Positions 1 through 3,083 of a DNA stretch of 3,083 bases are shown here, piece by piece. Positions within the stretch are counted from its first letter, which is position 1. Each line of letters opens with the position of its first letter. Under the pieces are notes generated by a model. That model was not told where the DNA came from. It did no database searches and was given only the letters and a program-made list of their open reading frames with translations. The stretch is taken from the NCBI RefSeq assembly GCF_054482595.1, contig NZ_JBTHVH010000002.1; one strand, 5' to 3'. The stretch comes from a plasmid. Made by a program: the position numbers and the translations under genes.

Positions 1-426
1 CTCTTCGCTCTCCGTCTGATTTCGTTTGCAATTCTGTTATTTACTCTAATGGTGATAACCTTAGTCCTCTGCCGTACTTCTGAACCACTACGCTTATTTT
101 TAGCCATCGCAATGACTCTCCATTTTGCACGTTCTGGGTGTCGGGGCCTGCCCTGACAGGAGGTATTCTCATGCAAGCGAATGTATTCGCGGTATGACGA
201 ATACACATCCTGTCCCGTTTTTCGCTACAACTTTTCGACAAAAATAAAATACCGCGTCGTAACCTGGTATTTCTGATACAAAAAAACGATGCTTCATTCA
301 ATATTATTTACACAGATTTTAAAAGTTATTTCTTGTTATTTAATAAATAACGCAAAATTAATTGATGCTTTTGTTCTTTGTCGTTTGTTGATTATTGAGT
401 AAATAAAGATTGTGTTTTCCTGATTA

Positions 427-432
427 TATAAT
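427..432 (+). promoter_or_regulatory. Candidate -10 hexamer (TATAAT) of a ColE1-type RNA II primer promoter
   Basis: Perfect TATAAT at 427-432 in an AT-rich tract. No good -35 was found (TAAAGA at 17-bp spacing matches 3 of 6). The implied start near 439 puts GATCAAGA (481-488) about 43 nt into the transcript, as in ColE1/pBR322 RNA II. Confidence 0.35.
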
Positions 433-1059: not shown

Positions 1060-1215
1060 GGCGACTCATCCCTGAAAGAAAAACAACGGGATCACCGACA
1101 ACATGCGAGAGATGACACCGCTCGCCGCAGCCCTAGCGACCGAACGTAGTGAGCGAGTGGGCGAGGAAGCGGAAGAGAACTGGAAGGTACATTTGGCTCT
1201 TACGCACTTCCGTAA
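1060..1215 (+). other. Ori-distal conserved segment with primosome assembly site (n'-pas / ssi-like)
   Basis: TCATCCCTGA...GATGACACCGCTCGCCGCAGCC...GTGAGCGAG...GAGGAAGCGGAAGAG...CTCTTACGCAC parallels pBR322/pUC TTATCCCCTGA...GATACCGCTCGCCGCAGCC...GTGAGCGAGGAAGCGGAAGAG...CTCCTTACGCAT. The GAAGCGG heptamer (1166-1172) is, as I remember it, the conserved PriA/n' recognition motif. Confidence 0.6.
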
Positions 1216-1382: not shown

Positions 1383-1913
1383 ATGATAAACGGTCGATAC
1401 AAAACTAACCCTTTTTTGGAAGGTATGATAGTGCCCGTCAAGGGTAAACAAGTCAGACTTTCCCGTCTAGGTCGTGATGAAAACATACTGGTTAATCAGA
1501 ACACGGGAGAGGTTCAAGGCACCCATGTAACAACATATAAACGGGTTGATGGTGAGCAGTTTGTAAAACTATTCACTGCAAATATCGCGTTAACCTTTGA
1601 TTTGTCAGCTCAAGGAATAAAAGCATTTAACGTTTTGATGTGGGCAATACAAAAGCAGTCAGTATCAAAAGACGAAGTTTATTTAGATACTCACACAAGA
1701 GAGGAGTTTCTTGCTATTTATAATGATAAAGATAAACCAATTAAATTAAGTCAGCCAACATTTGCTAGAGGATTAGCTGAACTTACAAAAGCTCAAATTA
1801 TAGCTAAAACCATACGTCAAGGAGTGTATTGGATAAATCCAAATTTTGCATTCAACGGTGATAGAATCGCGTTTACAACTCTTATTGAAAGGCAAGGTAA
1901 TAGTGAAAAATAA
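1383..1913 (+). CDS. Small winged-helix DNA-binding protein, putative iteron-binding replication/maintenance protein (RepL-like; assignment tentative)
   Basis: Same frame as track ORF 1323-1913. ATG 1383 has AAGG 7 nt upstream; alternative starts are ATG 1425 and GTG 1431 (GGAAGG 7 nt upstream). Stop TAA at 1911-1913. The C-terminus has a helix-turn-helix plus beta-wing signature (QPTFARGLAELTKAQIIAKTIRQGVYWINPNFAFNGDR) and the N-half has a GEV...FVK pattern I recall from RepL. Direct repeats upstream fit an autoregulated iteron-binding protein. Confidence 0.65.
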   Translation: MINGRYKTNPFLEGMIVPVKGKQVRLSRLGRDENILVNQNTGEVQGTHVTTYKRVDGEQFVKLFTANIALTFDLSAQGIKAFNVLMWAIQKQSVSKDEVYLDTHTREEFLAIYNDKDKPIKLSQPTFARGLAELTKAQIIAKTIRQGVYWINPNFAFNGDRIAFTTLIERQGNSEK

Positions 1914-1926
1914 CAGGGTAAAAACA

Positions 1927-2715
1927 ATGAGAAAAAAGAATATGTTTCCGCCAGGATCTTTGAGTATAAAATTAAATAAACCTTTAACTAAATATGAAAT
2001 AATTGAGATATTGTCAGAATACCTCTCGATGTTAGAAATAACTTTTAGGATAAAAGAATTCCGGCTTTTCTCTTATTTGGAATGCGTGCTTAATGGAGAA
2101 AAGCAGGCTATATACCATAAAGATAATAACACAATCGTGTCTGGATTTTTACTTGATTCAATGAGGAGTACAAACAACAGAAAAATCAATAAGATACTGT
2201 TAGGCGGTGATGATTTTGATGCCATGGAAAAAATCGATGACATGTTAAATATGAAAGCAGAATCCAATCCGTATGAATATTTTAAGAGTTTTTTATCACT
2301 AGTTCCTGCTAATATTGCATATGATCTCATCAGGAAAACTGAAGAGTTAATCGAACTTGAGAGAGTGGAAAGGATAAAAGAAAAAATCGAATTGCGTGAA
2401 AAAAAGCTAGAAAAAGATAAAAACATATTAAAGGTTATTTATAACAATAAGATTGCTGAGTATTCATGTACTTTTGATTATTTTAGATCTGTATATTTGT
2501 CTAGCTCTGGTTTTTTATCTTTAGAAAAACAAAAGGCTAAATATTTTCTTGCGGAAGGGTTGGGTTCACTATTGAAGGATTATGTTGGTAAAAGGTTGGT
2601 AAGATTATCAATTAAAGGCGATGATGGTAAAGTCTCCATAGTCGAAATATATGATGAAAATGGTAGATTTTTATTTAAGACAAAACCTCTAAATAAATCA
2701 CAGAGTAATCTTTAA
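1927..2715 (+). CDS. Hypothetical protein (262 aa), AT-rich, with a highly charged E/K-rich central helix; function unknown
   Basis: ATG 1927 lies 14 nt after the upstream stop, with AGGG 8-9 nt upstream. The track ORF start at 1846 would overlap the upstream gene out of frame and is unlikely. Stop TAA at 2713-2715. Residues ~134-169 (nt 2326-2433, DLIRKTEELIELERVERIKEKIELREKKLEKDKN) look like a charged helix or coiled coil. No Walker, HEPN, PD-(D/E)xK or polymerase motifs seen by eye. Confidence 0.75.
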   Translation: MRKKNMFPPGSLSIKLNKPLTKYEIIEILSEYLSMLEITFRIKEFRLFSYLECVLNGEKQAIYHKDNNTIVSGFLLDSMRSTNNRKINKILLGGDDFDAMEKIDDMLNMKAESNPYEYFKSFLSLVPANIAYDLIRKTEELIELERVERIKEKIELREKKLEKDKNILKVIYNNKIAEYSCTFDYFRSVYLSSSGFLSLEKQKAKYFLAEGLGSLLKDYVGKRLVRLSIKGDDGKVSIVEIYDENGRFLFKTKPLNKSQSNL

Positions 2716-2761: not shown

Positions 2762-3083
2762 TTATCTGTCGAATAAGTTAGAGCCTGGGTATTTATTTTT
2801 GTGCTCTCTTTTTATTATTTTTATTTCCTCTATTATTAAATCCATCTCTTTATAAATATTTGAAATTTTCTGTGTTATCTCTTTCATTTCAGTACAGAGT
2901 GAAATTATTTTATGCATCACCTCTAGGTACTCTTTATCATTCGGACTCATCCCTTTATCAAATAATTTTTTCTGCATCCGACCAAGTTGTATTAATTCAT
3001 CTAGATATCTAGAAGGCACGCGCTGTTTTATTTCATTATTTAAACTTACTGTCCTTATATACTCTGAGATTGTCAGCCCTTCG
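2762..3083 (-). CDS. Hypothetical protein, 5'-partial (frame open to the window edge), AT-rich; function unknown
   Basis: Track ORF 2762-3019 begins at a GTG with no ribosome-binding site. The same frame has no stop for 21 more codons to position 3083 (…EGLTISEYIRTVSLNNEIKQR-VPSRYLDEL…), so the true start probably lies beyond the window. Stop TAA (plus-strand TTA 2762-2764). Convergent with the 1927-2715 gene. Confidence 0.5.
   Translation of the reverse strand, partial: EGLTISEYIRTVSLNNEIKQRVPSRYLDELIQLGRMQKKLFDKGMSPNDKEYLEVMHKIISLCTEMKEITQKISNIYKEMDLIIEEIKIIKREHKNKYPGSNLFDR

Follow-up and report, generated by a model that had tools for sequence, protein, structure and literature searches.

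A conserved 17-bp palindrome in the AT-rich DNA beside the predicted nic site of a small RepL plasmid of Escherichia coli

The window, by which we mean the whole stretch of 3083 nucleotides that was analyzed, proved to be a rotated copy of the complete circular E. coli plasmid pLH10-b-1-j (NZ_CP100540.1, 3083 bp, Col(MG828)). The plasmid carries three genes, repL, an ORF of 270 aa, and mobA, the last of which is missed by the ORF list of the linear window because it spans the window ends. The features of the locus, in order of position and without a strand where none applies, are as follows.

1-107, minus strand: 5' part of mobA, from the annotation of NZ_CP100540.1
136-220, plus strand: R64 (IncI1)-type oriT, from alignment to the R64 oriT, with an identical 21-mer, CACATCCTGTCCCGTTTTTCG
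139-158: oriT inverted repeat
182-189 and 198-205: oriT inverted repeat TGTATTCG/CGAATACA
213-640: non-coding AT-rich block (AT block), ∼30% GC, between nic and the GC-rich origin region, predicted to be transferred first
335-351: perfect 17-bp palindrome GTTATTTA-A-TAAATAAC, with a conserved unit of 7-3-7
427-432, plus strand: TATAAT formerly taken as the −10 element of RNA II, conserved, without a usable −35 element
529-558: deepest conserved island of the AT block, ATCGCGTTTATATATTAAAAATATAAC, 87% kept in the sister family
747-1208: GC-rich non-coding region, common to plasmids with three different small Rep proteins
1117-1206, plus strand: sole ColE1-like stretch, 77% over 90 bp, matching ColE1 1308-1396
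1280-1391: GTCTATCA direct and inverted repeats (iterons) and the predicted repL promoter, upstream of and overlapping the repL start
1383-1913, plus strand: repL, encoding a replication protein of 176 aa (annotation; Pfam RepL, 2.4e-7)
1903-2715, plus strand: ORF of 270 aa, overlapping repL by 11 nt
2762-3083, minus strand: 3' part of mobA, same annotation

The best promoter-like site in the window was the repL promoter, which scored 8.4 on a σ70 matrix. The 270-aa ORF yielded no family match in Pfam, NCBIfam, or PADLOC; it is present in pLAO21-like plasmids and missing from the 2.3-kb relatives. MobA (142 aa) is a NikA-like ribbon-helix-helix relaxosome accessory protein (NCBIfam MobA, 3.8e-26; Pfam NikA-like, 3.8e-16), the N terminus of which matches the solved DNA-binding domain of NikA (PDB 2BA3, 1.1e-5). 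The protein is ∼41 to 44% identical to R64 NikA and ∼32 aa longer, with an added C-terminal coiled-coil region. Within the mobA coding sequence, a perfect 14-bp palindrome, TCTAGATATCTAGA, is located at 3000-3013. No relaxase gene was found on the plasmid, which implies mobilization by an I-complex helper.

The oriT arm CGAATACA at 198-205 ends 8 nt before the expected nick in ACATCCTG/T, where the slash marks the nick, and on this basis nic is predicted to lie between G212 and T213. This placement was made from the nick position in R64; Furuya and Komano reportedly located the repeat arm 8 nt from the nick. The locus thus combines the nick-region sequence, a repeat arm 8 nt from the nick, and an adjacent gene for a NikA-like ribbon-helix-helix protein, the attributes of an R64-type oriT, whose core consists of the nick region and repeat A (PMC4743918). 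The hybrid plasmids in our comparisons bear on the same site. For L014 (p5312.29, an IncK2/Z cointegrate), CACATCCTG has the oriT of the large plasmid itself on its left and DNA of this plasmid family on its right, and for L036 (pB771_2328, 2328 bp), main-type DNA on the right of nic is joined to a mobA and a repeat of the sister type on the left. Both junctions fall exactly at the predicted nic, a coincidence that suggests module exchange at oriT, and those of L014 provide indirect support for mobilization. The DNA 3' of a nic site enters the recipient first. On the strength of the predicted nic and the hybrid junctions, transfer would begin with the plus strand from position 213, and 130 nt of that leading strand would separate the predicted nic from the center of the palindrome.

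Comparison with known systems supports the same assignment. The nick-region core CACATCCTGTCCCGTTTTTCG is identical in R64, and a neighboring ribbon-helix-helix accessory gene transcribed away from nic is likewise a common feature; an inverted repeat ending 8 nt ahead of the predicted nick is shared with the oriT-nikA region of R64, and the possession of a NikA protein without a relaxase gene is shared with the pCERC7/NTP16 group, for which the concept of the relaxase-less, NikA-only plasmid was described (PMC9282650). In contrast, the repeat sequences are not those of R64, the DNA beyond nic (the AT block with its palindrome) has no R64 counterpart, and pCERC7-type plasmids are ColE1-like whereas the plasmid studied here has RepL and iterons. 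We conclude that the surroundings of the palindrome belong to the R64-type oriT/NikA class of relaxase-less mobilizable plasmids, set on a RepL/iteron replicon.

The GC-rich region at 747-1208 was 84 to 92% identical across plasmids encoding the 176-aa RepL, a 137-aa RepL-like protein, or a 158-aa HTH Rep, and every carrier with a PLSDB replicon type was Col(MG828). This region is probably the host-dependent part of the origin. The pKL1-like 1.5-kb Col(MG828) plasmids have only 747-1208 in common with the window (∼90% identity) and resemble it further in possessing an R64-like oriT; they differ in their 158-aa HTH Rep, in being without mobA, the AT block, and the palindrome, and in having operator palindromes of their own, GTCGCATCCTGGATGCGAC, that are unrelated to 335-351. 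In NC_018652.1 (L026), positions 1444-1527 hold an R64-like oriT that includes CACATCCTGTCCCG without a nikA or mobA gene, and in the same plasmid the GGGTGTCGGGGC...GCCCTGACC element occurs a second time in inverted orientation. We found no description of the region in the literature on Col(MG828), RepL, and pKL1.

The earlier note had placed the palindrome ∼80 bp upstream of the candidate −10 element of an RNA II promoter in a ColE1-type origin. The distance fits the TATAAT at 427-432, but we found no support for that hexamer as part of an RNA II promoter. RNA I (RF00106) was absent from the window in an Rfam search at E ≤ 1, whereas ColE1, searched against the same library as a positive control, gave 73.8 bits, and blastn with a word size of 7 detected no similarity in the window to the ColE1 RNA II region. 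Within 747-1208 only the stretch at 1117-1206 resembles ColE1, and its match, ColE1 1308-1396 in the same orientation, is located ∼100 to 190 bp downstream from the origin. A promoter consensus scan returned nothing in 1-1357, the TATAAT included, and the combination TAAAGA-17-TATAAT scored 4.3 on the σ70 matrix versus the 8.4 of the repL promoter. RNAalifold analysis of 23 aligned relatives over 425-600 on both strands revealed no supporting covariation or conserved RNA structure. Replication without a plasmid initiator, as in ColE1, would not be expected of a plasmid that has a RepL gene and iterons. An RNA I/RNA II system was rejected on the Rfam, ColE1 blastn, and RNAalifold results together with the ColE1 control, and RNA I/RNA II models are no guide to the copy-number logic of a plasmid that is not ColE1-like.

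Positions 335-351 read GTTATTTAATAAATAAC, two perfect 8-bp arms around a central A343, exactly as the earlier note had described, and the window has no second perfect palindrome whose arms reach 8 bp at a spacer of 0 to 3. The warning given with that description, that AT-rich DNA yields palindromes by chance, was well founded. When the whole window was shuffled with preservation of its dinucleotides, 15.6% of the shuffles held an equally good palindrome (arms of at least 8 bp, spacer of 0 or 1), a frequency that rose to 22% when spacers of 0 to 3 were allowed; for the AT-rich block 230-600 shuffled alone, the corresponding frequency was 3.3%. Given these frequencies the palindrome by itself is not significant, and because ∼16% of shuffled windows match it, it is weak evidence when taken alone.

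We compared the site among 12 PLSDB relatives, 11 metagenome contigs that were fetched with a search pattern placed outside the palindrome, and three further RefSeq plasmids. Metagenome contigs exceeding the plasmid length were chimeric or multimeric assemblies and provided no added context. The palindrome was perfect in 21 of the 26 main-type sequences (the window included), and 24 of the 26 retained an intact 7-3-7 arrangement, in which the 7-bp arms GTTATTT and AAATAAC (335-341 and 345-351) flank a free 3-bp center (342-344). The most variable position of the palindrome was 342, beside the center, where A, G, or T occurs (A342G in L011, L017, and L012; A342T in L035), and the arm substitutions were G335A in L012 and A350G in L008. 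The right arm (345-351) was conserved as well as the left arm in the 26 main-type sequences. For 23 unique related sequences, the mean pairwise differences in 325-334, 335-351, and 352-368 were 0.165, 0.024, and 0.206, respectively, so that the site is flanked by variable DNA on both sides; the right edge of the conserved island coincides with the end of the palindrome, and bases 352-358 vary freely. Equally conserved 17-nt windows made up 1.7% of the variable zone 325-520 and 16% of 213-640. The joint chance of a palindrome (3.3%) in a conserved window (1.7 to 16%) is ∼0.05 to 0.5%, a figure that was computed post hoc and assumes independence, and all of these conservation statistics are soft because the relatives represent few lineages within one plasmid family. 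No compensatory, symmetry-restoring double changes were seen among the compared relatives. Conserved arms with a free center form the pattern expected of a dimer site whose center is not contacted, and the site has the dyad symmetry, the conserved arms, and the free center of an operator. The geometry of a dimeric operator or nucleoid-protein site, which the earlier note had recognized, is accordingly retained here as the most plausible class, although the site does not stand upstream of RNA II.

The distribution of the palindrome was found to be independent of both RepL and MobA. The plasmid pS19_141-h (L031) is 81 to 87% identical to the window over 752-1889 and pLAO21 (L032) is 73.5% identical over 747-2687; each has a different oriT and no AT block. 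Conversely, 2337-bp plasmids that encode a 137-aa Rep (L028), the gene for which shows no detectable DNA similarity to repL, have the palindrome in perfect form. There is no likeness between the palindrome and the GTCTATCA iterons and no covariation with the type of Rep, as would be expected of a RepL site. In a sister family of 2.18-kb plasmids (L033 and L034), the AT block is colinear and strongly diverged, and the site of the palindrome reads CTTGTTATTTTTTTATTATG, where the left arm survives without the right one; what these plasmids retain is CTTGTTATTT, the left arm with the preceding CTT. MobA of L036 is 98.6 to 99.3% identical to those of L033 and L034, yet the palindrome of L036 is perfect. 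L034 and L036 even encode the same RepL (WP_072650454.1) along with MobA proteins that are 99.3% identical, and the palindrome is found only in L036. Conservation in distant relatives that keep the same regulator, as expected of an operator, was therefore not seen in the sister family. Because of this loss and because the AT block is missing from close RepL replicons, the palindrome is tied to neither RepL nor MobA, and the same comparisons indicate that it is not a copy-number operator. Where an origin function is concerned, the earlier note had looked for retention of the palindrome in close relatives keeping that origin; this expectation largely failed, since plasmids with the same RepL replicon have no AT block and the right arm of the sister family is scrambled. 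Because the palindrome is independent of the plasmid proteins, a protein that binds the dyad is unlikely to be plasmid-encoded, which points to a host factor.

Searches for a partner of the palindrome were negative. Consensus sites for IHF, Fis, H-NS, DnaA, ArgR, Lrp, Fur, CRP, ArcA, and XerCD matched the palindrome with two to five mismatches at best, and a search of 213-640 for a Xer/cer-like site gave 8/22 mismatches for the best dif-like sequence and 4/16 for the best ArgR box. The palindrome has no similarity to the RepL iterons or the oriT repeats. R64 (120.8 kb) contains no GTTATTT-N0-6-AAATAAC dyad, its best match having one mismatch and lying inside excA, and a regulon of the helper plasmid was rejected on this ground. 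No good σ70 promoter was present within 100 bp of the palindrome on either strand; the weak candidates nearby include TTAAAT-16-TAAAAT on the minus strand, with a score of 3.3. As a hairpin, the palindrome has a predicted stability of −3.5 kcal/mol and a stem made entirely of A-T pairs except for the terminal G335-C351. Taken alone, the 27-mer is more stably folded than its shuffles (z = −4.1), whereas the 51-nt context does not stand out (z = −0.67), and the AT block as single-stranded DNA showed no unusual folding (z = −0.82). Established ssi and Frpo elements are long and highly structured, and extensive stable single-strand structure of that kind was not found here. A hydrophobic ORF with a conserved ATG, at 289-402 on the plus strand, which overlaps the palindrome, specifies 37 aa in the window, 67 to 68 aa in many relatives, and 17 to 44 aa in others. 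The AT-block relatives showed no codon periodicity, and the small ORF from ATG 289 was rejected as a coding sequence since it is broken in many relatives; it is probably not a gene.

From the comparisons above, we tentatively favor the reading in which the palindrome is a binding site for a two-fold symmetric protein supplied in trans, with a host factor as the likeliest candidate. The element would be a small, locally conserved, dyad-symmetric cis element in the double-stranded AT-rich DNA that follows nic, a double-strand site being favored because so weak a hairpin should not matter in single-stranded DNA. Its binder would more probably be a host factor with a preference for AT-rich DNA than a plasmid protein, and its role may be to help organize or bend the AT block. 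Such an element would be accessory and replaceable within the AT block rather than a copy-number operator; the dyad is not required for AT-block function because the sister family keeps only the left arm. Against a protein-binding dyad stand the missing right arm of the sister family and the lack of a compensatory change, a consensus match, or an overlapping promoter. These same points suit an account in which the palindrome is incidental, namely that an AT-rich stretch is conserved for a reason other than symmetry, e.g., as the tail of the near-invariant segment 213-322, as a bend or a tract that melts readily, or as an UP-like element, and that the dyad arose from low-complexity A/T sequence as a side effect. 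We consider this account a strong rival, if somewhat less probable than the binding site. Between 16 and 22% of shuffled windows do as well, the retention of the left arm and CTT by the sister family suggests that the constrained piece is CTTGTTATTT rather than the dyad, and 16% of the 17-nt windows over 213-640 are just as conserved. It is less easily reconciled with a right arm as conserved as the left in the 26 main-type sequences next to freely varying bases 352-358, with the concentration of variation at the near-central position 342, or with the very small chance that an independently conserved 17-mer would be a perfect 8 + 8 dyad.

The remaining explanations are less probable. The palindrome could be a secondary site for the plasmid's own MobA, which would either carry the relaxosome over to the leading side of nic or serve in autoregulation of mobA. 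In PLSDB and RefSeq the AT block occurs only in records that also carry a mobA/oriT of the window's type, ribbon-helix-helix proteins bind short inverted repeats, and MobA combines a match to the NikA DNA-binding domain at its N terminus with ∼32 aa beyond the length of R64 NikA. We nonetheless regard a MobA site as unlikely in view of the near-identical MobA proteins of L036 and L033/L034, which accompany the palindrome in the one and a site without its right arm in the others, and of the predicted DNA-reading strand KVIT[IL]R, which is nearly identical in both families; in addition, the arms are unlike the oriT repeat CGAATACA, the expected place for NikA-type binding, and no credible mobA promoter overlaps the dyad. 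A hairpin in the transferred single strand, serving like ssi or Frpo as a signal, for priming or recognition, in complementary-strand synthesis, would be suitably placed, as the 5' end of the strand predicted to be transferred is 130 nt away, and a 7-bp stem with a 3-nt loop fits both the freedom at 342 and the z score of the isolated 27-mer. Its nearly all-A-T stem of only −3.5 kcal/mol, the ordinary folding of the 51-nt context and the AT block, the contrast with the long and strongly structured ssi and Frpo regions, and the lack of compensatory changes make it very improbable. The view put forward in the earlier note, an operator or nucleoid-protein site upstream of a ColE1-like RNA II promoter that affects copy number, fares worse still. 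It can draw on the conservation of TATAAT 427-432, on a rightward transcript that may enter the GC-rich region, and on the similarity of 1117-1206, in the same orientation, to DNA downstream of the ColE1 origin, and the overall layout, a TATAAT-bearing AT-rich region upstream of a GC-rich non-coding region ending in a 90-bp ColE1-like stretch, does recall ColE1. By comparison with ColE1, however, the window has neither RNA I (with the positive control detected) nor similarity to the RNA II region, its candidate promoter is weak and no RNA structure is conserved, it has a Rep protein and iterons, and the AT block is dispensable for related replicons, being missing from RepL replicons of 81 to 87% identity and from the 1.5-kb plasmids with the GC-rich region. 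Such comparisons appear largely to refute this view, and we give it hardly any weight; what stands of the earlier note is the palindrome, the caution about chance, and the plausibility of an operator or nucleoid-site geometry, whereas its ColE1/RNA II frame does not. Least credible of all is that the palindrome is coding, as CYLINN in a small hydrophobic peptide starting at ATG 289. The reading frame, 37 aa here and 67 to 68 aa in many relatives, is annotated in one record, but frameshifts or early stops in many relatives shorten it to 17, 25, 33, or 44 aa, the sister family has no such ATG, the variable sites divide 13/14/12 among the codon positions, and no Shine-Dalgarno sequence precedes ATG 289.

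The palindrome is one of the conserved islands of the AT block, which are set between variable spacers. The block begins with a near-invariant leading segment (213-322), and its occurrence was limited to 37 records of PLSDB and 56 of E. coli in RefSeq. The island at 529-558 survives in the sister family, where nearly all other AT-block DNA has diverged, and it may be of greater importance than the palindrome. The minus strand has a perfect DnaA box, TTATGCACA, at 497-505; most relatives read TGTACATAA or TATGCATAA, and the box was dropped as a functional site because it is not conserved. In L033 and L034, a perfect 14-bp palindrome, TAAATAATTATTTA, with the same 7-mer half-site in the opposite arrangement, occurs ∼190 nt past nic (p ∼8e-4 in shuffles, in a post hoc test). 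We did not rely on it as the counterpart of the palindrome at 335-351, since it aligns to a different island (window 400-410) and was tested post hoc. A bolder proposal is that the AT block serves tiny NikA-type plasmids as a cis-acting leading-region cassette that can be exchanged independently, existing in two strongly diverged versions, each with a perfect TTATTTA/TAAATAA half-site dyad that would nucleate a host nucleoid protein, control mobilization or establishment, and couple oriT to the Col(MG828) origin; we offer it as speculation that is rather unlikely to be correct.

In its setting, the palindrome is most like the accessory sites that flank nic in F and RP4, an analogy that we draw without claiming membership in that class. 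The accessory sites of RP4 and F aid relaxosome architecture and are not essential for nicking, and we know of no need for such a leading-side region in R64-type origins. Both the TraK-bound bent region of RP4 and the oriT of F, the IHF, TraY, and TraM sites of which have been summarized (PMC9282650), resemble the present locus in having AT-rich non-coding DNA beside nic with short symmetric or repeated sites. They differ in that no IHF consensus is found at the palindrome here, the sister family is without the dyad, and the binder is only presumed. As judged from sequence comparison, the palindrome is probably a protein-binding site of modest importance and an ordinary cis element. Its assignment to the oriT-proximal leading region corrects the context in which it had been viewed, and the wider significance is limited. 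Gut E. coli commonly carries small Col(MG828)/RepL plasmids, in which non-coding DNA makes up over half of the sequence; should a host factor bind the dyad and influence mobilization or establishment, the dyad would be a cis element of relaxase-less "hitcher" plasmids that need IncI-complex helpers. One 2310-bp member of the family, NZ_CP031857.1 (L007), was deposited as Actinobacillus pleuropneumoniae, which represents either a true extension of the host range or contamination.
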